This document shows, piece after piece, positions 6,095 to 52,415 of a stretch of DNA of 64,000 nt. Made by a program: the position numbers and the translations under genes. Position 1 is the first letter of the stretch. Each line of letters starts with the position of its first letter. The DNA lies in the NCBI GenBank assembly GCA_025458245.1, contig JALOSW010000002.1:4361-68360 (forward strand), read 5' to 3'. The notes below the pieces were generated by a model. The model made no database searches, had not been told where the DNA came from, and saw only the letters and a program-made list of their open reading frames with translations. The DNA is from Burkholderiales bacterium (GTDB taxonomy: Bacteria > Pseudomonadota > Gammaproteobacteria > Burkholderiales > SG8-39).

Positions 6095-7235
6095 TCAATC
6101 GGCTTCCGCGAGCGTCGCCGGCGCGCCCTTGCCGACGCCCTGCTTGAGGCTCGCTTCGATGAAATCGTCGAGTGCGCCGTCGAGCACCGACTGGGTGTTG
6201 CCGATCTCGACGCCGGTGCGCAGATCCTTGATGCGCGACTGGTCGAGCACGTACGAGCGGATCTGGTGGCCCCAGCCGATGTCGGTCTTCGAGTCCTCGA
6301 GCTTGTCGCGCTCGGCCTGCCGCTTGCGCAGCTCCTGCTCGTAGAGCTTCGCCTTGAGCATCGCCATCGCCTCGGCCTTGTTGCGGTGCTGCGAACGGTC
6401 GTTCTGGCATTGCACGACGATGCCGCTCGGGTTGTGCGTGATGCGCACCGCCGAGTCGGTCCGGTTCACGTGCTGGCCCCCGGCGCCCGACGCGCGATAG
6501 GTGTCGATGCGCAGGTCGGCCGGATTGACCTCGATGTCGATCGACTCGTCGACCTCGGGGTACACGAACACGCTCGCGAACGACGTGTGGCGGCGCGCGT
6601 TCGAGTCGAACGGCGACTTGCGCACGAGCCGGTGAATGCCGGTCTCGGTGCGCAGGTGCCCGTAGGCGTGATCGCCGTTCACCTTGATGGTCGCGGTCTT
6701 GATGCCGGCGACCTCGCCGTCGGACTCCTCGAGGATCTCGACCTTGAAGCCCTTGCGCTCGGCGTACTTGAGGTACATGCGCAGGAGCATCGAGGCCCAG
6801 TCCTGCGCCTCGGTGCCGCCGGCGCCCGCCTGGATGTCGACGAAGGCGTTGGCCGGGTCGAGTGGTTCCGAAAACATGCGCCGGAATTCCATCGCCTCGA
6901 CGGCCCTCCGAATCATGGCGACGTCGCCGGCGATGGATTCGAGCGTCGCATCGTCGCTCTCGCCGCGTGCCATCTCGAACAGCTCGGCAGCGTCGCGGCG
7001 CTGCTGATCGACCTCCGCCAGGCCGACGACGACGGTTTCGAGCGCTTTTTTCTCGCGTCCGAGGTCCTGCGCGCGCTTCGCGTCGGCCCAGACGTTGGGG
7101 TCTTCCAGTTCGCGGCCGACGGTTTCTAGGCGGGTCTTCTTGCCGTCGAAGTCAAAGATACCTCCGCAAGTCGTCGAGCCGGGTCCCGAGGTCGGCGAGG
7201 GTGGCGGCGAGGGCGTTGAGACGTTCGGGTTCCAT
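6095..7235 (-). CDS. prfB: peptide chain release factor 2, requires programmed +1 frameshift
   Basis: ORF 6095..7258 carries the RF2 body (SPF-type and GGQ: [12 protein letters not shown]). The true start ATG at 7235 gives [27 protein letters not shown], then in-frame TGA at 7154..7152 within CTT TGA C. Confidence 0.95.
7151..7166 (-). promoter_or_regulatory. RF2 autoregulatory +1 frameshift site (GGAGG-TAT-CTT-TGA-C)
   Basis: Minus strand reads CGGAGGTATCTTTGAC: an internal SD-like GGAGG, slippery CTT, and a UGA stop followed by C. The downstream frame continues as [12 protein letters not shown]. Confidence 0.9.
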
Positions 7236-19555: not shown

Positions 19556-22500
19556 TCAGTCCGGCGCGCGCCGGAGGTCGAGCGTGTAGGGAAAGCTTCG
19601 GTTCGGCCCCTCGGACGCGAGGCTCATCGGGCCGGGCGTGTGGCCGTGGTCCCAGAACCGCGCGAAGCGCCGCGCCTCGGCCTCGTTGGCGTTGACCGGG
19701 AAGGTCTCGTAGTTGCGGCCGCCCGGATGGGAGACGTGATAGGTGCAGCCGCCGATCGCGCGCCCGCTCCAGGTGTCCACGATGTCGAACACGAGCGGCG
19801 TGTTCACGCCGATGGTCGGATGGAGGGCCGAGGGCGGCGCCCACGCCTTGTAGCGCACGCCGGCGACGAACTCGCCGTGCACTCCGGTCGGATGCAGCGG
19901 CACGAAGCGGCCGTTGCACGCGACCGTGTGCCGCTCGCCCACCATGCCGCGAACCTTCACCTGCATGCGCTCGACCGAGGAGTCGACGTAGCGCGCCGTG
20001 CCTGTCCCGGACATCTCCTCGCCGAGGACATGCCACGGCTCGATCGCCTGCCGCAGCTCCATCTCGACGCCTTCGTACGCCACCGTGCCGTAGCGCGGAA
20101 AGCGGAACTCCAGAAAGGGCGCGAACCACTCGTCGCGGAACGGATAGCCGAAGGCGCGCAGGTCGCGCGCGACGTCGCGGATGTCCTCGGCGACGAAGTG
20201 GGGCAGCATCCAGCGGTCGTGGAGTTGCGTGCCCCAGTGCACGAGGCGTCCGCGGTAGGGCGCCTTCCAGAAGCGCGCCACGAGCGCGCGCAGCAGCAGC
20301 ATCTGGACGAGGCTCATGCGCGCGTGCGGCGGCATCTCGAACGCGCGGAACTCGACGAGGCCGAGCCGTCCGGTCGGACCGTCGGGCGAGTAGAGCTTGT
20401 CGATCGAGAACTCGGCGCGGTGCGTGTTGCCGGTGAGATCGACGAGCAGGTTGCGCAGCAGGCGATCGACGAGCCAAGGCTTCTCCGACTCCGTGCCCGC
20501 AGGGAGCTGCTCCTCCATCTGCTGGAACGCGATCGCCAGCTCGTAGAGGTTATCGTCGCGCGCCTCGTCGACGCGCGGCGCCTGCGAGGTCGGGCCGATG
20601 AACATCCCCGAAAAGAGATACGAGAGCGCGGGATGGTTCTGCCAGTAGGTGATCAGGCTGCGCAGCAGGTCGGGACGGCGCAGGAACGGCGAGTCTGCCG
20701 GCGTCGCACCGCCAAGGGTGACGTGGTTCCCGCCGCCCGTGCCGGTGTGCCTGCCGTCGAGCATGAACTTCTCGGTGCCGAGCCGCACCTGCCGCGCCTC
20801 GTCATAGAGGTCGGTGGTGTTGCGCACGAGCTCCGCCCACGCTGCCGCAGGCTGGACGTTCACTTCGATCACGCCCGGGTCCGGCGTCACGGCGAGCGAC
20901 TTGAGACGCGGATCGCGCGGTGCCGGATAGCCCTCCACGCGGATCGGCCGCCTCAGCCGCGCCGCGACGCCCTCGAGCGCCGCGGCGAGATCGACGAAGC
21001 GCTCGAGATGCGTGAGCGGCGGCAGGAAGACGTGCAACCGGCCGCCCCGCGGCTCGATCACGAGCGCGGTGCGCACCACCTCGCGCGGCTCGGGGGCCGC
21101 GCGCGTCGCGCGGCCGGGGCGATGGGTGATCCGCTCGTTCCGCTCGTGCGCGTCGTGGAGTTCCTCGCGCGGGTCGAAGGGGTCGCGATCGAACGCAGGC
21201 TCGACATCGGCGGGGGTGACCTCGGGAAGCGACGCGAGCGGCAGCCGGTAGCCGGCGGGCGAGTCGCCAGGCAGGAGGTACAGCTGCTCGCGCCGCAGCG
21301 GCCAGGCCGAGCTTTGCCACGCGGTCGCCTTATCCGTCCCGGCGGCGCGCAGCGGCAGCACGAATGCGGCCGGCTCGTCGAGGCCGCGTCCGAGCGAGCG
21401 GGCCAGCCGTGAGCGCTCGTCGTAGTCTTTCATCGGCACGCGCGCCGGATCGAGGTTTGGCGGGAGGTTCGCCTCCAGCGCGAGGAGCGGCAGCGGGTCC
21501 TCGTAGGCGGTGATGACGAAGGACTTCGCCAGCCCCAGGGCTTCGGCGAGCGCGTCGGCGAAGTCGCGCGCGTCGTCGAGGGTCGCGTCGGCGGGCAGGT
21601 CTTCGGTGGCGATGAGCCCCGGGTCGCGCCACAGCGGCTTGCCGTCTGCGCGCCAGTAGATCGGCAGCGCCCAGCGCGGCAGCGGCTCGCCCGGATACCA
21701 CTTGCCCTGCCCGTAGAAGACGAGGCCCCCCGGCGCGAACCGGGCCCGCAGCCGTTGCGCGAGCTTCTCCGCGAGCGCCCACTTTGCCGGCGAGAGCGCG
21801 GTGAAATTCCACTCTTCCCCGTCCATGTCCGCCACCGACACGAACGTCGGCTCGCCGCCCTGCGTGAGCCGCACGTCGAGCGCCGCGAGGTCGTGGTCGA
21901 CGCGGTGGCCGAGCGCGTCGATGGCGGCCCACTCGCCGTCGGAATAGGGTTTGGTGACGCGCGGATCCTCGTGGATGCGCGTGACCTTCATCTCGAACTG
22001 GAGCGTCGACTCGCACGGGTCCGTGTAGCCGACGACCGGGGCGGCCGACGCGGGGAACGCGGTCGCGGCGAGCGGGATATGCCCTTCGCCCGCCAGCAGG
22101 CCCGAGGTTGGATCGAGTCCGATCCAGCCCGCGCCGGGCAGGTAGACCTCGGCCCATGCGTGCAGGTCGGTGAAATCGTGGGCCGGACCGGCGGGACCGT
22201 CGAGCGGTTTCACGTCGGCTGCGAGCTGGACGAGATAGCCGGACACGAAGCGCGCCGCGAGCCCGAGGCGGCGCACGATCTGCACGAGCAGCCAGCCGGT
22301 GTCGCGGCACGAGCCGCAGCCGAGCGTGAGCGTCTCCTCGGGCGACTGCACGCCCGGCTCCATGCGCACGAGGTACTTCACGTCCTGCTGCAGCCGCTGG
22401 TTGAGGTGAACGAGCATGTTCACCGTGTTGTCGCCGGGCTTGAATCCCGAGCGCCGGAAGGATTCGATCCACGCCGCGAGCCGCGGGCCCATGTCTTCGC

Positions 22501-22858
22501 ACACGAGATAGGGCGCGAGCTCGGTGCGGAGCGCCGCAGGGTAGTCGAAGGGGAATTGCTCCGCCCAGCTCTCGACGAAGAAGTCGAACGGGTTGATGAC
22601 GGTCATGTCGGCGACGAGGTCGACCGTCACCGCCATCGACTCGGCCTTCTCGGGAAAGACGTAGCGCGCGATCCAGTTCCCGTAGGCGTCCTGCTGCCAG
22701 TTCACGAACTGCTTCGCCGGCTCGACCTTCAGCGAATAGGACAGGATCGGCGTGCGGCAATGCGGCGCGGGGCGCAGCCGGATCTCGTGCGGCGAAAGCG
22801 CCACCGGCCTGTCGAACGCATACCGGGTGGCGTGATGCAGGGCGACGCGGATGGCCAT
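19556..22858 (-). CDS. large transglutaminase-family protein (Bact_transglu_N + transglutaminase core + DUF2126-like region)
   Basis: 1100 aa. N-terminus MAIRVALHHATRYAFDRPVALSPHEIRLRPAPH. Catalytic-type Cys in GCGSCRDTGWLL and His/Asp in DLHAWAEVYLPGAGWIGLDPTSG. Confidence 0.9.
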   Translation of the reverse strand: MAIRVALHHATRYAFDRPVALSPHEIRLRPAPHCRTPILSYSLKVEPAKQFVNWQQDAYGNWIARYVFPEKAESMAVTVDLVADMTVINPFDFFVESWAEQFPFDYPAALRTELAPYLVCEDMGPRLAAWIESFRRSGFKPGDNTVNMLVHLNQRLQQDVKYLVRMEPGVQSPEETLTLGCGSCRDTGWLLVQIVRRLGLAARFVSGYLVQLAADVKPLDGPAGPAHDFTDLHAWAEVYLPGAGWIGLDPTSGLLAGEGHIPLAATAFPASAAPVVGYTDPCESTLQFEMKVTRIHEDPRVTKPYSDGEWAAIDALGHRVDHDLAALDVRLTQGGEPTFVSVADMDGEEWNFTALSPAKWALAEKLAQRLRARFAPGGLVFYGQGKWYPGEPLPRWALPIYWRADGKPLWRDPGLIATEDLPADATLDDARDFADALAEALGLAKSFVITAYEDPLPLLALEANLPPNLDPARVPMKDYDERSRLARSLGRGLDEPAAFVLPLRAAGTDKATAWQSSAWPLRREQLYLLPGDSPAGYRLPLASLPEVTPADVEPAFDRDPFDPREELHDAHERNERITHRPGRATRAAPEPREVVRTALVIEPRGGRLHVFLPPLTHLERFVDLAAALEGVAARLRRPIRVEGYPAPRDPRLKSLAVTPDPGVIEVNVQPAAAWAELVRNTTDLYDEARQVRLGTEKFMLDGRHTGTGGGNHVTLGGATPADSPFLRRPDLLRSLITYWQNHPALSYLFSGMFIGPTSQAPRVDEARDDNLYELAIAFQQMEEQLPAGTESEKPWLVDRLLRNLLVDLTGNTHRAEFSIDKLYSPDGPTGRLGLVEFRAFEMPPHARMSLVQMLLLRALVARFWKAPYRGRLVHWGTQLHDRWMLPHFVAEDIRDVARDLRAFGYPFRDEWFAPFLEFRFPRYGTVAYEGVEMELRQAIEPWHVLGEEMSGTGTARYVDSSVERMQVKVRGMVGERHTVACNGRFVPLHPTGVHGEFVAGVRYKAWAPPSALHPTIGVNTPLVFDIVDTWSGRAIGGCTYHVSHPGGRNYETFPVNANEAEARRFARFWDHGHTPGPMSLASEGPNRSFPYTLDLRRAPD

Positions 22859-22870
22859 GACTGAAGTTCA

Positions 22871-22965
22871 GGATCTAGGATCTAGCATCCAGGATTCAGG
22901 ATTCAGGATTGAGGATCTAGGATCGAGCTCTCAATCCTCAATCCTCAATCGTCAATCCTGAATCC
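22871..22965. repeat. palindromic array of 7-bp tandem repeats (8 x GGATnnA, GAGCTC centre, 5 x TCAATCC-type inverted units)
   Basis: Read directly: ggatcta ggatcta gcatcca ggattca ggattca ggattga ggatcta ggatcga gctc tcaatcc tcaatcc tcaatcg tcaatcc tgaatcc. In-register arm pairing is about 30/35. Confidence 0.9.
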
Positions 22966-22968
22966 TGC

Positions 22969-23718
22969 TCACTGCGGCGTGCGCTCCTCGTCCCAGCTGG
23001 GGTTCGGGAGCTGCGCGAACACGCGCCGCAGGCCTTCGCCCCACTGGGTGTGGATCATGTTGAAGTACGGATCGGATTCGAGGATGCGCCGTTGCATGCC
23101 GACGCGCAGCGCGTCGCGCTCGCACATGAGGAGGTCGATCGGCAGCCCGACGGAGACGTTGGAGCGCATGGTCGAGTCGAACGACACCAGCACGCACTTG
23201 GTCGCGTCGGTGAGCGACGTCGTCGGCTTGATCACGCGGTCGATGATCGGCTTGCCGTACTTGGTCTCGCCGATCTGGAAGAAGGGCGTCTCCGGCGTCG
23301 CCTCGATGAAGTTGCCTTCCGCGTAGACCATGAAGAGCCGCATCGGCTCGCCCTGGATCTGGCCGCCGAGGATGAAGGAGGCGCTCGAGTCGATGTTGTT
23401 CTGCATCAGATAGGCGCCGTCGCGGCGCTTCACCTCGCGCAGGCAGTCGCCGAGAAGCTGCGCCACCTCGAACATCGACTGGGCGTTCCATAGTGTGAGC
23501 GTCCCGTCGACGCGCCGCGCGTTCTGGTCGAGCAGGTTGATGGCGTTCTGCGTGACCGACAGGTTGCCCGAGCTCATGATCACCACGAGCCGGTCGCCGG
23601 GGCGCTCGAACACGCGCATCTTGCGAAAGCTCGATACGTTGTCGACGCCCGCGTTGGTGCGCGAGTCCGAAGCGCACACCATGCCGGCGTCGATGAGGAT
23701 GCCCACGCAGTACGTCAT
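22969..23718 (-). CDS. Anbu-type proteasome beta-subunit-like protease (T1 family)
   Basis: ORF 22969..23781, start MTYCVGILIDAGMVCASDSRTNAG. Thr follows the initiator Met directly, with no propeptide. Overall pattern matches bacterial Anbu proteins. Confidence 0.88.
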   Translation of the reverse strand: MTYCVGILIDAGMVCASDSRTNAGVDNVSSFRKMRVFERPGDRLVVIMSSGNLSVTQNAINLLDQNARRVDGTLTLWNAQSMFEVAQLLGDCLREVKRRDGAYLMQNNIDSSASFILGGQIQGEPMRLFMVYAEGNFIEATPETPFFQIGETKYGKPIIDRVIKPTTSLTDATKCVLVSFDSTMRSNVSVGLPIDLLMCERDALRVGMQRRILESDPYFNMIHTQWGEGLRRVFAQLPNPSWDEERTPQ

Positions 23719-23826
23719 GGCCGTTTTTCCGCGCCGCTGTCGAAGAGCCGCGAGCATAGAGAATCGGCGGCGCGGCGGCAAGGAAGCGAAACACGCATCG
23801 CCGTGCGCACTGTCCCCGCGAGGCGC

Positions 23827-24786
23827 CTACGCGTAGACCGGCACCAGGAAATGCCGGTTGATCTCGTCGTTGAGCGACTGCAGCTTCTCCAGGAACTCGA
23901 GCAGATACTCGTGCAGCCCGACCGCGAAGATGCGCTCGGTCTTGCCGTAGTGGAGCTGCGCATGGATCTCCCCCGCGAGCCGCTCGGGCTCGAGCTTCGC
24001 GCCGGCCGAGAGCTCCTGGAGGATTTCGTACAGCTGGTTCATGCAGGCGTGCAGCGACCGCGGCATGTCCTCGCGCAGCACCAGCAGCTCGGCGACCCGC
24101 AGCGGCGTGATCACGTCGCGGTAGATCTTCCGGTAGGCGTTGAAAGCCGACACCGAGCGCAGCAGCGCCGACCACTGGTAGTAGTCGACCGCGCCGCCCA
24201 CGTCGTGGATGCTCGGCAGCAGCGTGTGGTACTTCACGTCGAGGATGCGCGCCGTGTTGTCGGCGCGCTCGAAGAAGGTCCCCAGGCGGATGAACTGATA
24301 GCCCTCGTCGCGCAGCATGGTGCCGAACGTGACGCCGCGGAACAGGTGGCTGCGGTCCTTCACCCAGTCGAAGAACGCCGAAACCCCCTCGGCGGTCAGC
24401 GTGCCGTAGGACTTCTCGCGGATGCGCAGCCACGTCTCGTTGAGGCTTTCCCACATCTCCACCGAAATCGCGCCGCGCTGCGCCCGCGCGTTCTCGCGCG
24501 CGTGCTGCAGGACCGAGTAGACCGACGAGGGGTTCGACGCGTCGAGCACCATGAAGCGCAGCACGTTCTCGGCGGTGAGCTCGGGATAGCGCTGGTAGTA
24601 AGTCGTGGCGAGCCCGGTGATGACGAGCGGCACCGCCCACGGCTCGGCCCATTTCTCGCCGGGCTCCATGACGCGGTAGGGGAGCATCGACATGCGGTAG
24701 GTCACGTCCAGCATGCGCGCGGTGTTCTCGGCGCGCTCCACCTGGCGCGACATCCAGAACAGGTCGTTCGCGGTTCGGCTCAGCAT
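23827..24786 (-). CDS. alpha-E domain-containing protein
   Basis: 319 aa. MLSRTANDLFWMSRQVERAENTARMLDV and FFERADNTARILDVKY are the duplicated alpha-E signature helices. Confidence 0.9.
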   Translation of the reverse strand: MLSRTANDLFWMSRQVERAENTARMLDVTYRMSMLPYRVMEPGEKWAEPWAVPLVITGLATTYYQRYPELTAENVLRFMVLDASNPSSVYSVLQHARENARAQRGAISVEMWESLNETWLRIREKSYGTLTAEGVSAFFDWVKDRSHLFRGVTFGTMLRDEGYQFIRLGTFFERADNTARILDVKYHTLLPSIHDVGGAVDYYQWSALLRSVSAFNAYRKIYRDVITPLRVAELLVLREDMPRSLHACMNQLYEILQELSAGAKLEPERLAGEIHAQLHYGKTERIFAVGLHEYLLEFLEKLQSLNDEINRHFLVPVYA

Positions 24787-24788
24787 GG

Positions 24789-26213
24789 CTACTGCTCCAG
24801 AACCCAGGTGTCCTTGGTCCCGCCGCCCTGGGACGAGTTGACCACCAGCGAGCCCTCTTTCAGCGCTACCCGGCAAAGGCCGCCGGGGGCCATGCGGATC
24901 TCGCGGCCGGACAGGACGAACGGACGCAGGTCGATGTGGCGGGGCGCGATCCCGGACTCGACGAAGGTCGGGCAGGTCGAGAGCGCGAGTGTGGGCTGCG
25001 CGATGTAGTTGTCGGGCTTCGCGATGATGCGCTCGCGGAACTCGGCGCGCTGCGTCATGGTCGCCGCCGGTCCGACCAGCATTCCGTAGCCGCCCGAGCC
25101 GTGCACCTCCTTCACGACCAGCTCGTCGAGATGCTCCAGGACGTACTTGAGATCGTCGCGCTTGCGCAGCTGCCAGGTCGGCACGTTGGCGAGGATCGGC
25201 TCCTCGGCGAGATAGAAGCGGATCATGTCGGGCACGTGCGGATACATCGACTTGTCGTCGGCCACGCCCGTGCCGATCGCGTTCGCGAGCGTCACGCGCC
25301 CGGCCCGGTACGCGCCGAAGAGCCCCGGCACGCCGAGAATCGAGTCCGGGCGGAAGACCTGCGGGTCGAGGAAATCGTCGTCGATGCGCCGGTAGATCAC
25401 GTCGACGCGCTTCGGTCCGCGCGTCGTGCGCATGTACACCGTGTCGTCGCGCACGAAGAGATCCTGCCCCTCGACGAGCTCCACGCCCATCTGCTGCGCG
25501 AGGAACGTGTGCTCGAAGTAGGCCGAGTTGTACTGTCCGGGCGTGAGCAGCGCCACCGTCGGGTCGGCGACGCCCTCCGGCGCCGCCTGCCGCAGGGTGT
25601 CGAGCAGGAGGTCGGGATAGTGATCGACCGGCGCGACCTGGTAGCGCGCGAAGAGCTCCGGGAAGAGCCGCATCATCACCTTGCGGTCCTCGAGCATGTA
25701 AGAGACGCCCGAGGGCACGCGCAGGTTGTCTTCGAGCACGTAGAACTCGCCCTTGCCGGCGCGCACGATGTCGACCCCGGCGACGTGCGCGTAGATCGCG
25801 TTGCGCACGTCGAGGCCCTGCATGACCGCACGGTACTGGCTGTTCTCCAGCACCCTGCGCGGGGGAATGATTCCTTCCTTCAGGATCGCCTGCTCGTGAT
25901 AGACGTCGTGCAGGAAGAGATTCAGCGCCTTCACGCGCTGCTGCAGGCCGCGCTCCAGCGTCGCCCACTCGTCGGCGGCGAGGATGCGCGGCACGATGTC
26001 GAAGGGGATCAGACGCTCGGTGCCGGTCTCGTCGCCGTAGACGGCGAACGTGATGCCGACGCGGTGGAACATGACCTCGGCCTCGCGGCGCTTTTGCGTG
26101 AGCCGGTCCGGCGGAATCGAGGCGAGCCAGTCCGCGTAGCCGCGGTAGTGCGGCAGGACGCCGCCGTCCAGGCCGCACATCTCGTCGTAGAACACCTGCG
26201 GAGCGGCAGTCAT
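24789..26213 (-). CDS. circularly permuted type-2 ATP-grasp protein
   Basis: 474 aa. FYDEM...HYRGYADWL...REAEVMFHRVGITFAVYGD...ERLIPFDIVPRI is the typical CP_ATPgrasp N-terminus. Ends 2 nt before the alpha-E start. Confidence 0.9.
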   Translation of the reverse strand: MTAAPQVFYDEMCGLDGGVLPHYRGYADWLASIPPDRLTQKRREAEVMFHRVGITFAVYGDETGTERLIPFDIVPRILAADEWATLERGLQQRVKALNLFLHDVYHEQAILKEGIIPPRRVLENSQYRAVMQGLDVRNAIYAHVAGVDIVRAGKGEFYVLEDNLRVPSGVSYMLEDRKVMMRLFPELFARYQVAPVDHYPDLLLDTLRQAAPEGVADPTVALLTPGQYNSAYFEHTFLAQQMGVELVEGQDLFVRDDTVYMRTTRGPKRVDVIYRRIDDDFLDPQVFRPDSILGVPGLFGAYRAGRVTLANAIGTGVADDKSMYPHVPDMIRFYLAEEPILANVPTWQLRKRDDLKYVLEHLDELVVKEVHGSGGYGMLVGPAATMTQRAEFRERIIAKPDNYIAQPTLALSTCPTFVESGIAPRHIDLRPFVLSGREIRMAPGGLCRVALKEGSLVVNSSQGGGTKDTWVLEQ

Positions 26214-50094: not shown

Positions 50095-50127
50095 TCGCCG
50101 CGGTTGCGACGCCCGGTGGGGGGTGCT

Positions 50128-51660
50128 ATGGTCGACGCGCACAGGGGACGGCTCAGGCTCGTGGACTACGATTCGCTCGCTGCCGTCGATCTCGGCTCGA
50201 ACAGCTTTCATCTGCAGATCGGCCGCGTCGTCGACGACCAGATCTACCCGCTCGACAGCCTGCGCGAACCGGTGCGGCTCGGCGCGGGTCTGACGCGCGA
50301 CAAGCGCCTCGACCGGGCCACGCAGGCGCGTGCTCTGGAGTCGCTCGCCCGCTTCGGCGAGCGGCTGCGCGGGTTCGCGCCCGGGGCGGTGCGCGCGGTC
50401 GGCACGAACGCGTTGCGCGTCGCCAAGAACGCGGCCGACTTTCTCGCCGAGGCGGAGCGGGCGCTCGGCTTCCCCATCGAGGTGATTTTCGGCCGCGAAG
50501 AGGCGCGCCTCATCTATCTCGGCGTGTCGCACGCGCTGCCGCCTTCGCCCGAGCGCCGGCTGGTGATCGACATCGGCGGCGGCTCCACCGAATTCATCAT
50601 CGGCACCGGCTATGACCCGCAGGTCATGGAAAGCCTGCCGATGGGATGCGTGAGCTACTCGTTGCGGTATTTCCCCGACGGCCGCATCGACAAGGGTGGC
50701 ATGAAGCGGGCCGAGCTGGCCGCCTCCAACGAGGTGCAGCGCATCGTGGGCGAATACCGGCGGGTCGGCTGGCGCCACGCGATCGCGTCGTCGGGCACCG
50801 CGCGGTCGATCGCCGCGGTGATCGCGGCGTTGGGCTGGGCGGACAACGGCATCACGCCGGACGGGCTCGAGCGCCTGCGCAATCACGTTCTCAAGGCCGG
50901 CGCCGTCGACCGGCTCGATCTTCCGGCGCTCAAGGCCGACCGGCTCGCGATTCTTCCGGGCGGCGTCGCGATCATGTCCGCGATCGTGTCGGAACTCGGT
51001 CTCGCGCAAGTGGAAGTGTCCGACGGCGCGCTGCGCCAGGGCGTGCTCTACGACCTTCTCGGCCGGGTGCAGCACCACGACATGCGCGAGGCGACCGTGG
51101 CGCAGTTCATGCGGCGCTACCATGTCGACGCGGCGCAGGCCGGACGCGTCGAGGCGCTCGCCTTGCGCCTGCTCCGCGAGGTCGCGGGCCGGCCGCGCGC
51201 GGACGAGGTGCAGCTCCTGCGCTGGGCGGCTTCGCTGCACGAGATCGGACTGTCGATCGCGCAGGCGGGCTACCACAAGCACTCGGCGTACATCCTGTCG
51301 AACGCCGACATGCCGGGCTTCTCCCAGGCCGATCAGCGGCGGCTCGCGCGCATCGTCCTCGCGCACCGCGGCAAGCTCACCAAGATCGAGAGCCTGCCGA
51401 TGCGCAGCGCCGACTGGGATCTCATCTTCGCGGTGCGCATCGCCGCGCTGTTCTACCGGAGCCGGGTGGACACGGTGCTCCCGCCGCTCGGATGCCGCGA
51501 GACCGAGAGCGGTTTCCAGTTGCTCCTGCCGTCGCCGTGGCTCGAGGCGCATCCGCTCACCGCCGCGGCGCTCGAATCCGAGGAAGACGACTGGAAGGCG
51601 CTCGGCATGCGCCTCGACGTCAAGGCCGTCGCCGCCGAGAAGCTGGCCGCGGCGGGATGA
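50128..51660 (+). CDS. ppx: exopolyphosphatase (Ppx/GppA family)
   Basis: 510 aa from MVDAHRG. AAVDLGSNSFHLQIG, GTNALR, EEARLIYLGV, DIGGGSTE, and an HD-like C-terminal domain. Confidence 0.93.
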   Translation: MVDAHRGRLRLVDYDSLAAVDLGSNSFHLQIGRVVDDQIYPLDSLREPVRLGAGLTRDKRLDRATQARALESLARFGERLRGFAPGAVRAVGTNALRVAKNAADFLAEAERALGFPIEVIFGREEARLIYLGVSHALPPSPERRLVIDIGGGSTEFIIGTGYDPQVMESLPMGCVSYSLRYFPDGRIDKGGMKRAELAASNEVQRIVGEYRRVGWRHAIASSGTARSIAAVIAALGWADNGITPDGLERLRNHVLKAGAVDRLDLPALKADRLAILPGGVAIMSAIVSELGLAQVEVSDGALRQGVLYDLLGRVQHHDMREATVAQFMRRYHVDAAQAGRVEALALRLLREVAGRPRADEVQLLRWAASLHEIGLSIAQAGYHKHSAYILSNADMPGFSQADQRRLARIVLAHRGKLTKIESLPMRSADWDLIFAVRIAALFYRSRVDTVLPPLGCRETESGFQLLLPSPWLEAHPLTAAALESEEDDWKALGMRLDVKAVAAEKLAAAG

Positions 51661-51727
51661 GCCGGGCGCCTGCGACGGGTTCGCGCGCTTCTCCGCGGGC
51701 CTTGGGCTCGTTCACCACTGCGGCACG

Positions 51728-51790
51728 GGCGACACTCGCGACACTCGGAACATGCGGGACACTCGGGACACGCGGGACACGCGGAACGTG
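51728..51790. repeat. 7 x 9-bp tandem repeat (CGGGACACK consensus)
   Basis: ggcgacact cgcgacact cggaacatg cgggacact cgggacacg cgggacacg cggaacgtg. Lies in the convergent ppx/sixA gap. Confidence 0.9.
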
Positions 51791-51889: not shown

Positions 51890-52342
51890 TCAGAGCAGCT
51901 CGGGTGAAATCACTGCCGTCAGCACGACCTCGACGCGGCCCGCGCGCTCGCGCGCGCTGAACCACCAGATCGCGCCCTTGCGGACGCTCCACTCGGTGTC
52001 GCTGGCGGCGAGCAGCCGCGCCGCCACTTCGCCCAGCGTGGGCTGGTGTCCGACGACCACCACCGTGCCGCCGCGATGCGGCCACTTTGCGGCCTGCAGC
52101 ACATCGTCGGCCGACGCGCCGACGTCGACCGCCGCGTTCGGCGCGTACTTCCTTCCGAGGGCGTCGGCCGTCTCCCGCGCGCGCACGGCCGGGCTCACGA
52201 CGAGCTTCGCTTTGCCGGGCAGCCGGGCGTCGAGCCACTCGGCCATCTTCTTCGCCTGCTTCCGGCCTCGCTTGGTCAGGCGGCGCGCGGCGTCGGGCAC
52301 GCCTTCCTCGGCCTCGGCGTGCCGCCACAGCACGAGATCCAT
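51890..52342 (-). CDS. sixA: phosphohistidine phosphatase SixA
   Basis: MDLVLWRHAEAEEG (RHG-type RHA motif) ... VVVGHQPTLG. An alternative upstream start lies at 52375. Confidence 0.85.
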   Translation of the reverse strand: MDLVLWRHAEAEEGVPDAARRLTKRGRKQAKKMAEWLDARLPGKAKLVVSPAVRARETADALGRKYAPNAAVDVGASADDVLQAAKWPHRGGTVVVVGHQPTLGEVAARLLAASDTEWSVRKGAIWWFSARERAGRVEVVLTAVISPELL

Positions 52343-52415
52343 CAGCCTTCGGGCTTCGTTTTCGCGCGCGAGCATGACCTGCCTTTCGGACCGGAACGCC
52401 TACCCGGGCGCGATG

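Follow-up and report, generated by a model that had tools for sequence, protein, structure and literature searches.

A convergent pair of heptanucleotide repeat arrays between the Anbu and transglutaminase genes of a Burkholderiales bacterium varies by whole units and is predicted to form a long RNA hairpin

The stretch of DNA analyzed here (the window, 64,000 nt at its full length) comes from a Burkholderiales bacterium of the SG8-39 lineage (GCA_025458245.1, contig JALOSW010000002.1). In it, the gene for Anbu, the ancestral beta-subunit, a proteasome-type protease, is followed in the same direction by a transglutaminase-like/DUF2126 gene, and the gap between them is filled by a palindrome of 7-nt tandem units. 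The element consists of two heptanucleotide simple sequence repeat (SSR) arrays, (AGGATNN)n and then (NNATCCT)m, which form a convergent inverted pair, and it belongs to the intergenic heptamer-SSR class. It shares with that class the 7-nt tandem units, the intergenic position near the end of the upstream open reading frame (ORF), the convergent arrays with the purine-rich one first, and the variation among relatives. Heptamer repeats are the most over-represented long SSRs in many large bacterial genomes, and their function is unexplained. The features of the locus are as follows.

22969-23718, minus strand: Anbu gene, 249 aa, protein starting MTYCVG, stop codon TGA at 22969-22971
22933-22967, minus strand: hairpin 5' arm, five purine-rich heptads (CAGGAUU, CAGGAUU, GACGAUU, GAGGAUU, GAGGAUU)
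22925-22932, minus strand: hairpin centre GAGAGCUC, with the GAGCTC palindrome at 22926-22931 and a predicted 4-nt apical loop, GAGC, at 22927-22930
22890-22924, minus strand: paired 3' arm, five pyrimidine-rich heptads (GAUCCUA, GAUCCUC, AAUCCUG, AAUCCUG, AAUCCUG)
22869-22889, minus strand: three surplus 3' heptads (GAUGCUA, GAUCCUA, GAUCCUG) outside the main stem, with small local hairpins predicted
22859-22868, minus strand: 10-nt linker AACUUCAGUC, immediately 5' of the transglutaminase ATG, without a Shine-Dalgarno (SD)-like 4-mer
19556-22858, minus strand: transglutaminase-like/DUF2126 gene, 1100 aa, ATG at 22856-22858, N-terminus MAIRVALHHATRY
24789-26213, minus strand: circularly permuted ATP-grasp gene
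ending at 23827, minus strand: Alpha-E gene

The gap between Anbu and transglutaminase is exactly 110 nt long, and the arrays occupy 22869-22967 of it. A preliminary description of the locus, made from the sequence, had proposed a palindrome of 7-bp repeats filling almost the whole gap, and Tandem Repeats Finder, an inverted-repeat search and a lag-7 autocorrelation scan all confirm it. On the plus strand, eight units (AGGATCT, AGGATCT, AGCATCC, AGGATTC, AGGATTC, AGGATTG, AGGATCT, AGGATCG) are followed by AGCTC and then by TCAATCC, TCAATCC, TCAATCG, TCAATCC and TGAATCC. The eight heptads of that description are thus present, although one reads GCAT and not GGAT as its GGATnnA formula required, and the GAGCTC centre (22926-22931) and the five inverted heptads (22933-22967) are likewise present. 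According to Tandem Repeats Finder the period is 7, and the copy number is 8.0 at 22869-22924 and 5.3 at 22930-22966. The inverted-repeat search gave, as its best match, 38-nt arms (22890-22927 and 22930-22967) that are 87% complementary and separated by 2 nt. The repeats are imperfect, and the longest perfect tandem run is three units (CAGGATT at 22890). The low GC content that had been noted is borne out, with 46% in 22871-22965 versus 70% in the whole window. The pattern GGATTSAGGATTSAGGAT, with at most three mismatches, has eight matches in the window, all at the heptad locus, where 0.08 would be expected, and the autocorrelation scan found this locus to be the sole period-7 array in 64 kb. 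Moreover, the centre GAGAGCTC is also found in sister alleles (L210, L219, L220, L237-L239; the prefix L marks the loci collected in this study).

The strand of the genes determines how the element is read. Both genes lie on the minus strand, so the 5' arm in the mRNA is the 5-unit, CAGGAUU-type arm and the 3' arm is the 8-unit, AUCCU-type arm, which corrects the earlier orientation. In the mRNA sense, a G stands between the Anbu UGA and the first heptad, and the 5' arm of the hairpin starts 2 nt past the stop. The gene names given earlier are correct by structure matches and Pfam. The Anbu protein matches the solved Anbu structures 5LOY, 5NYW, 5LOX, 5NYJ and 5NYF with E = 3e-102 to 3e-72, and two NCBI assemblies have an annotated gene for exactly this protein. 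The closest homologues carry the names of Burkholderiales proteins from metagenome-assembled genomes, in keeping with an uncultured member of this order. The transglutaminase gene product carries the Pfam domains Bact_transglu_N, Transglut_core and DUF2126, and its N-terminus is conserved among orthologues. The whole cluster runs in one direction in the order ATP-grasp, Alpha-E, Anbu and transglutaminase.

The spacer RNA is predicted to be far more stable than its composition would give. Its minimum free energy is -62.9 kcal/mol, compared with -38.7 +/- 3.7 for shuffled sequences (z = -6.6), and none of 200 shuffles was as stable, in agreement with the stable hairpin that the preliminary description had anticipated. 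The predicted stem has 34 bp, including two G-U pairs, with three one-base interruptions, and spans 22967-22890. Its end lies 31 nt 5' of the transglutaminase ATG and not 12 nt as had been proposed, while the repeat array itself ends 10 nt from the ATG. The hairpin is still predicted within a 451-nt context. Shifted registers are approximately 12-22 kcal/mol less stable, which rules out a slippery hairpin that would switch between registers by drawing on the three spare 3' units. The sequence that follows the stem is GGAUGCUAG, without a U-tract, and scans of 22500-23300 detected neither a sigma-70-like promoter nor an intrinsic terminator. A search of Rfam 15 at gathering level over the whole window gave no match, and a permissive search gave only sub-threshold, generic miRNA-precursor hairpins (at most 33 bits versus thresholds of 50-100).

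Several other roles for the repeat sequence were considered and set aside. A G-quadruplex is ruled out for the window allele, which has GG tracts only and none of the tracts of at least three G (at least four such tracts) that are needed; the element therefore falls outside the G-quadruplex-forming subclass (GGGAATC / GGGGAYT). Coding potential is rejected, as every frame of the repeat region is broken by UGA or UAG. Mini-ORFs of five codons in the 5' arm, from SD-like GAGGA together with UUGA start/stop overlaps, are possible in principle only; we regard these overlaps as a numerical outcome of the 7-nt period, and the units that create them in the survey of the class described below differ from the main unit types of the window.

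To place the element among its relatives, Anbu-transglutaminase junctions were gathered from about 90 related loci. In 41 orthologues at greater distance (Anbu 60-78% identical to that of the window), the transglutaminase start could be identified; most of their spacers are short, from a 4-nt overlap to approximately 60 nt, and none of the 41 carries a heptad array. In contrast, the spacer of the window clade (Anbu 74-96% identity) measures 69-226 nt and is made of short tandem repeats whose unit is lineage-specific, as follows.

GGAT/ATCC heptads: the window, L130, L210-L227, L220 and L237-L239
CAGGGAT/ATCCCTG heptads: L131 and L228
GGTCAGC/GCTGAAR heptads: L229 and L234
GCGGTCG/CGACCGC heptads: L124
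two unrelated heptad arrays: L123
array remnants only: L125 and L128
12-nt units in two arrays: L133

The first four unit families each fold into a single dominant long hairpin, at -45 to -93 kcal/mol; apart from L123 and the remnant alleles, every allele is predicted to form such a hairpin. At the junction, periodicity and palindromic layout are conserved although the sequence changes. The stem of most sister alleles reaches to 1-14 nt 5' of the transglutaminase start codon. No SD-like 4-mer precedes transglutaminase in any of eight window-clade members, so the lack of an obvious SD, as first described, stands. As a special trait of the heptad spacer it does not, because such a 4-mer occurs in only 13 of the 41 distant orthologues; for the same reason, the absence of the SD as an effect of the array is rejected. 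In another lineage, the junction is a 170-nt, non-heptameric long palindrome (L203:366-535 and L209:206-375; z = -4.8 and -7.8). The Anbu-transglutaminase junction repeatedly gains structured or repetitive inserts, as L203, L209 and L133 illustrate. In six of the more distant orthologues (L140, L155, L159, L164, L174 and L176), Anbu is followed by an ORF whose product starts ..RTRFAPSPTGFLHLG.., an N-terminus typical of glutamyl-tRNA synthetase, instead of transglutaminase; the linkage of Anbu to transglutaminase is therefore not universal.

The spacer varies naturally, and an allelic series was built from individually looked-up members of the Anbu protein cluster. The window allele is base-for-base identical in GCA_025491015.1 and GCA_025490995.1 (three contigs in all, with no variation), and diverged versions of the spacer occur in many independent metagenome assemblies. 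These identical copies and diverged versions exclude an assembly artefact, a concern raised at the outset. Ten contigs encode an identical Anbu protein (P0122); at the DNA level they share 99.2-100% identity in Anbu and 99.0-100% in the first 600 nt of transglutaminase. Their spacers are 117 nt in seven contigs from different samples and otherwise 129, 130 and 143 nt. Between L219 and L210 the difference is exactly two heptads, located in the 3' arm; L213 has one more heptad than L211, and its leader is not the same. Similarly, at least four alleles are found on seven contigs that encode another identical Anbu protein (P0123; 99.9-100% identity in Anbu DNA), and four of these contigs end within the array. 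Sets of length alleles in flanks at least 99% identical also include 123/131 nt and 108/113 nt. The variable unit number that had been suspected is thus real, as whole-heptad differences between sister populations with flanks at least 99.0% identical. Some alleles also recur: the 117-nt allele is unchanged in seven independent samples, and the 113-nt and 108-nt alleles are found in four each.

A whole cassette can also be replaced. In L229 and L234, an unrelated 102-nt palindrome takes the place of the 113-nt palindrome of L228, although the loci are 99.7% identical in Anbu and 99.8% identical in 900 nt of transglutaminase. Across this exchange (L229:1936-2037 versus L228:1936-2048) the stop codon differs (TGA versus TAG), and the few Anbu differences cluster in the last 105 nt of the gene. 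This pattern suggests a recombination breakpoint directly beside the spacer. The spacer between Alpha-E and Anbu on the same contigs served as an internal control; it is constant in length and 97-100% identical, which shows that the instability is specific to the repeat spacer and not general to non-coding DNA. Collectively, what is new here is the whole-unit alleles and the cassette swap at this spacer, next to an invariant neighbouring spacer, and the retention of the hairpin in nearly all alleles, together with the purine-arm-first polarity of the pairs listed from many phyla in the survey below.

Further observations concern the same contigs. The Alpha-E-to-Anbu spacer (23719-23826; L211:1399-1500; L228:1022-1200) is 102-179 nt long and contains a conserved motif, CTTGCCGC..GATTCTCTATGCTCGCGG (TTGCCG-17 nt-TATGCT). 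As an internal promoter before Anbu this motif was rejected; it shows resemblance only and falls below the threshold of the consensus scan. Many contigs of metagenomes and metagenome-assembled genomes end inside heptamer arrays, at L131/L233, L224-L227, L023, L030, L042, L046, L062, L102, L110 and L120, and the heptamer repeats are frequent assembly break points, through either within-sample length heterogeneity or tangles in the repeat graph. GCA_025490995.1 contains two versions of the Anbu operon with approximately 90% DNA identity, L220 (JAOQHZ010002708.1) and L002 (JAOQHZ010000513.1), with spacers of 108 and 110 nt, respectively; these reflect either a bin that mixes two related populations or two genomic copies.

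For the wider class, we scanned one genome per species for (AGGATNN)4, which yielded at least 120 loci (L003-L122). The scan required at least four units, so shorter arrays are unsampled, and ORFs were crude longest-ORF calls, so the context counts are approximate. All counts that follow are among the matches listed. These loci come from Acidobacteriota, Planctomycetota, Verrucomicrobiota, Gemmatimonadota, Chloroflexota, Cyanobacteria, Bacteroidota, Gallionella and other Betaproteobacteria. The flanks of 114 arrays were long enough to look for an inverted (NNATCCT)n partner; one lies within 250 nt downstream in 25 of them and upstream in none, against a background of 0.005 per 250 nt. The purine-rich arm therefore comes first in 25 of 25 pairs, and the window element has this polarity on either strand. 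The variable dinucleotide is complementary between the arms in 19 of the 25 pairs, whereas 2000 permutations gave a mean of 9.6 and a maximum of 16. Pairs lie between co-directional ORFs in 13 cases, convergent in six and divergent in one, and several fill the spacer to 0-15 nt from both genes. Approximately 78% of arrays are unpaired, and in these the nearer ORF lies 5' of the AGGAT strand in 42 cases versus 22. Four units are the commonest array length (93/133, four being also the query minimum), and AGGATGA is the commonest unit (51/133). Rehm et al. (PMC4692102) likewise found four-unit arrays to be preferred.

In 484 kb of Anbu-related contigs, lag 7 gave 12 arrays and the other non-harmonic lags gave 0-4. 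In the survey, different heptamers often form arrays next to each other, for example at L006, L011, L014 and L117. The betaproteobacterial locus L156 (67% Anbu identity) has two more convergent heptad pairs, at 1276-1390 and 7051-7171 (AAGGATG/TCATCCT and GGGGATA/TCATCCC); both occupy non-Anbu spacers between co-directional ORFs, with the purine-rich arm first. The window itself has one strong period-9 array, a nonamer array (GACACNCGG)n of approximately seven units at 51724-51787, located between apparently convergent ORFs (50104-51660, plus strand; 51890-52375, minus strand), approximately 60 nt past the stop.

Taken with the anatomy, placement and polarity described above, these data make us confident that the element is a heptamer-SSR palindrome of a known class, driven by slippage and recombination. 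That the hairpin has a specific post-transcriptional role is a more tentative proposal. The two combined, namely a slippage- and recombination-driven repeat palindrome that is transcribed within the operon and alters transglutaminase expression post-transcriptionally, we judge to be evenly balanced. For this combined reading, we infer that the element is transcribed, that it affects translation or processing, and that the hairpin is under selection.

The proposed course of events is as follows. The ancestral Anbu-transglutaminase junction was probably short and tightly coupled, and the array would have arisen there. At the DNA level, slipped-strand mispairing would continually remodel each arm, and recombination could swap the entire spacer. 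The element is presumably transcribed inside the operon mRNA, because the genes are co-directional and no promoter or terminator was detected between them. In the mRNA, the hairpin of approximately 34 bp would loop the insertion out, with its base beginning 2 nt past the Anbu stop. A ribosome at this stop might melt the bottom of the stem and thereby free the complementary strand on the transglutaminase side, which in sister alleles would lie 1-14 nt from the AUG. Translational coupling by such unmasking has a classical geometry, as in the rpmI-rplT and atp operons. Initiation at the SD-less transglutaminase start would then depend on ribosomes that reach the Anbu stop. The long double-stranded RNA could also be a target of RNase III, by analogy with the hmw genes discussed below, and a hairpin so near the stop could also reduce Anbu output, by analogy with repetitive extragenic palindromic (REP) sequences. 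Any effect would be graded, not ON/OFF; it would set the ratio of transglutaminase to Anbu, with arm lengths shifting the geometry. The preliminary description had suggested that the element uncouples the downstream gene. This is one option, and the geometry of the stem base suits enforced coupling equally well.

A number of observations weigh against such a role. In the window allele, the end of the stem 31 nt before the ATG makes masking of the start codon weak. The unpaired exterior nucleotides of the folded spacer are no fewer than in shuffles; as this test is undiscriminating, the juxtaposition of stop and start by the fold is proposed from geometry, without statistical support. Orthologues free of arrays are the majority, which indicates that the element is dispensable for the operon, and the SD is missing in 28 of the 41 orthologues without arrays. 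Within the window clade, the two arrays of L123 (Anbu 96% identical) are unrelated and its fold is unexceptional (z = -0.6), and L125 and L128 keep remnants only. The complementary arms can arise neutrally from a palindromic seed that expands independently in each arm. Furthermore, each functional step is derived from sequence and predicted fold. Finally, in the standing view (Mrazek 2007, as cited in PMC4692102), SSRs of 5-11 bp in large free-living genomes are seen as an expansion tendency and not as a function.

A bolder extension of the combined reading would make purine-arm-first heptad palindromes a selected, pan-bacterial intercistronic RNA module. Their hairpin would loop out of the operon mRNA and tie SD-less downstream initiation to upstream termination or to RNase III cleavage, and the rapid gain, loss or swap of 7-nt units would act as an evolvable rheostat of intra-operon stoichiometry; its natural allelic series would be found at the Anbu-transglutaminase junction in these Burkholderiales. 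We consider this extension improbable.

Of the rival explanations, the one with most in its favor is that the element is a neutral or selfish by-product. In this account, polymerase slippage expands heptamer SSR arrays out of a small palindromic seed, the spacer tolerates them, and the hairpin arises incidentally, without consequence for expression. The fast turnover, the unconserved sequence and the independent variation of arm lengths are all consistent with it, as are the absence of the element from most orthologues and the loss of pairing in L123. Heptamers are also the dominant SSR period in the 484 kb of related contigs, and the literature ascribes the heptamer excess to slippage (PMC4692102). 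The lack of statistical support for stop/start juxtaposition and the frequency of SD-less starts in array-free orthologues point the same way. In contrast, four unrelated unit families all form palindromes across the stop-to-start interval, while approximately 78% of the arrays listed elsewhere are unpaired. The strict polarity of the listed pairs (25 to 0) and their near absence from divergent, promoter-bearing spacers, which is the same in Xanthomonas, also argue against pure neutrality. Moreover, 34 bp of double-stranded RNA only 2 nt from a stop codon would be unlikely to stay invisible to ribosomes and RNase III. We regard a purely neutral origin as unlikely, though deserving of serious weight as the main rival.

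A second alternative is a protein that reads the array as a series of binding sites in 7-nt register and competes with the hairpin, either a binder of single-stranded RNA, for example a cold-shock protein (Csp), S1 or CsrA (via AGGA), or a DNA-binding regulator. Such a protein would account for a periodicity that is kept while the sequence drifts, and four AGGA motifs stand at 7-nt spacing in the 5' arm. S1, Csp and CsrA have been proposed as binders of the TAACTGA repeats of Beggiatoaceae (PMC4679880), and an unidentified binding partner has been postulated for the Nostoc heptamer repeats (bioRxiv 10.1101/2022.06.06.494920). However, the unit is wholly changed between the near-identical genomes of L228 and L229, a change that sequence-specific binding should not survive. 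In addition, a very stable predicted stem buries the motifs, and no candidate gene adjoins the locus. For binders of double-stranded DNA, a 7-bp spacing is out of helical phase. A CsrA sponge in particular is ruled out by the buried AGGA motifs and the unconserved unit, and we consider binding arrays in general quite improbable.

The preliminary description had suggested, as one option, a phase-variable element. This would be a contingency switch in which the gain or loss of heptads flips transglutaminase ON or OFF in a clonal population. Whole-unit indels between backgrounds at least 99% identical would fit such a switch, as would contigs that break within the array (L131/L233, L224-L227) if they reflect within-sample heterogeneity, and the 7-bp repeats of hmw provide a precedent (PMC12721329). 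However, the arrays are imperfect, with no perfect run beyond three units, and so lack the perfect tract typical of contingency loci. The window allele is also the same in three contigs, one allele dominates in seven samples (117 nt), and the 113- and 108-nt alleles persist in four each. The repeat lies neither in a reading frame nor between promoter elements, so a binary mechanism is not evident, and the products of the operon are cytoplasmic enzymes of a housekeeping type rather than surface antigens. The claim of phase variation is thus weak, and a switch of this kind is very improbable.

Insertion of a mobile or dispersed palindrome, resembling REP sequences and bacterial interspersed mosaic elements (BIMEs) or miniature inverted-repeat transposable elements (MITEs), would explain an AT-richer palindrome of approximately 100 nt where the spacer of other lineages is short. 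The different long palindrome at the same junction in L203/L209 and the REP-like co-directional or convergent placement are also in line with it. However, the window has no second copy, and the internal 7-nt periodicity, the whole-unit indels and the unequal unit number of the arms are unlike REPs and MITEs. No target-site duplication or transposase was seen, although no systematic search was made for them, and the neighbouring ORFs are ATP-grasp, Alpha-E, Anbu and transglutaminase only. We consider insertion exceedingly improbable. An intrinsic transcription terminator or attenuator between the genes, which a strong hairpin directly past a stop codon might bring to mind, is barely credible given the missing U-tract, the empty terminator scan, a stem far longer than is typical, and sister-allele stems that reach right to the next start codon.

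With regard to its significance, the locus amounts to a natural experiment. The same gene pair, in backgrounds at least 99% identical, is joined by at least eight heptad-palindrome alleles with a predicted long hairpin, and an invariant control spacer lies nearby. If allele geometry does change transglutaminase output, this would be the first function for the class outside Haemophilus hmw. It would show a repeat that tunes the product ratio within an operon, in this case the Anbu operon. If the alleles make no difference, the locus would illustrate cleanly how a repeat expansion that folds on itself is tolerated.

The closest parallels among known systems are the heptamer SSRs of Xanthomonas, (GGGANTN)n and (GGGAATC)n, with approximately 186 arrays per genome, of which 89-93% are intergenic (Rehm et al. 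2015, PMC4692102). Each genome has 70-75 convergent inverted pairs of them. Their mean distance from the upstream ORF is 28 nt, most lie between co-directional genes and few at divergent sites, and they vary in length and sequence among close relatives; a function for the Xanthomonas and Nostoc repeats was not found (PMC4692102). Like the SSRs of Xanthomonas and Nostoc (GGGGA(C/T)T), the window element has a 7-nt unit with a related core, GGAT/GGGAT, and two variable bases. As in Xanthomonas, its G-rich array follows the upstream ORF on the coding strand and its C-rich array precedes the next ORF, the genes are co-directional, the polarity is always convergent, and the spacer site is kept while length and sequence vary. 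In contrast to Xanthomonas and Nostoc, the window allele has GG only and no G3-4, although the sister alleles L123 and L228 do have GGG or GGGG. Unlike in Xanthomonas, the arms of the window element abut, with a 4-nt loop, to give one continuous 34-bp hairpin. As for dispersion over the genome, the 64 kb of the window hold one period-7 locus, while related betaproteobacterial contigs such as L156 have arrays at other loci.

The REP and BIME elements of enterobacteria and pseudomonads are also intercistronic or 3'-end palindromes that fold in the mRNA, found at co-directional and convergent sites and rarely at divergent promoters. However, they have conserved units of approximately 35 nt, occur as hundreds of dispersed copies and are linked to RAYT transposases, whereas the window element is made of 7-nt units, changes by whole units and is present as a single copy in the window. 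Liang, Rudd and Deutscher reportedly found in 2015 that REP hairpins stabilise the upstream mRNA and, when within approximately 15 nt of the stop, reduce translation of the upstream gene.

In Beggiatoaceae, TAACTGA heptamer repeats end just 5' of SD-less start codons (MacGregor 2015, PMC4679880), and heptamer repeats of Nostoc lie near start codons (bioRxiv 10.1101/2022.06.06.494920). Together with the cyanobacterial short tandemly repeated repetitive (STRR) sequences, they resemble the window element as tandem heptamers a few nucleotides 5' of SD-less starts with a suspected post-transcriptional role. However, these repeats are nearly all direct (169 direct sets versus one inverted), use a single genome-wide unit and form no hairpins. 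In the multicopy elements of Geobacter metallireducens (Aklujkar et al. 2009, PMC2700814), a heptanucleotide, GGACCGG or MTYCTGA, is repeated in tandem four or five times, and those of the MTYCTGA type are depicted as looped sites that pair. They share with the window the short arrays of four to five heptamers, the partly palindromic pairs and the putative regulatory annotation. They differ in having a fixed consensus at 15-49 sites, which is read as binding sites of a global regulator, and hypervariability was not reported for them.

Among the related cases compared here, hmw is the sole mechanistically solved one. Upstream of Haemophilus influenzae hmw1A, (ATCTTTC)n forms one arm of a long hairpin in the 5' untranslated region, and RNase III cleavage sets both expression and repeat dynamics (PMC12721329). 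The hmw repeats are perfect, with at least 11 units, the other arm is non-repeat and G-rich, the hairpin follows a promoter, and phase variation has been demonstrated. In the window, both arms are imperfect arrays, the position is intercistronic, and the element is known from its DNA alone. As at hmw1A and hmw2A (Rapun-Araiz et al. 2025, PMC12721329), however, a heptamer SSR provides an arm of a long predicted hairpin just 5' of a gene, the repeat number varies, and the stem is long enough to be a substrate of RNase III.

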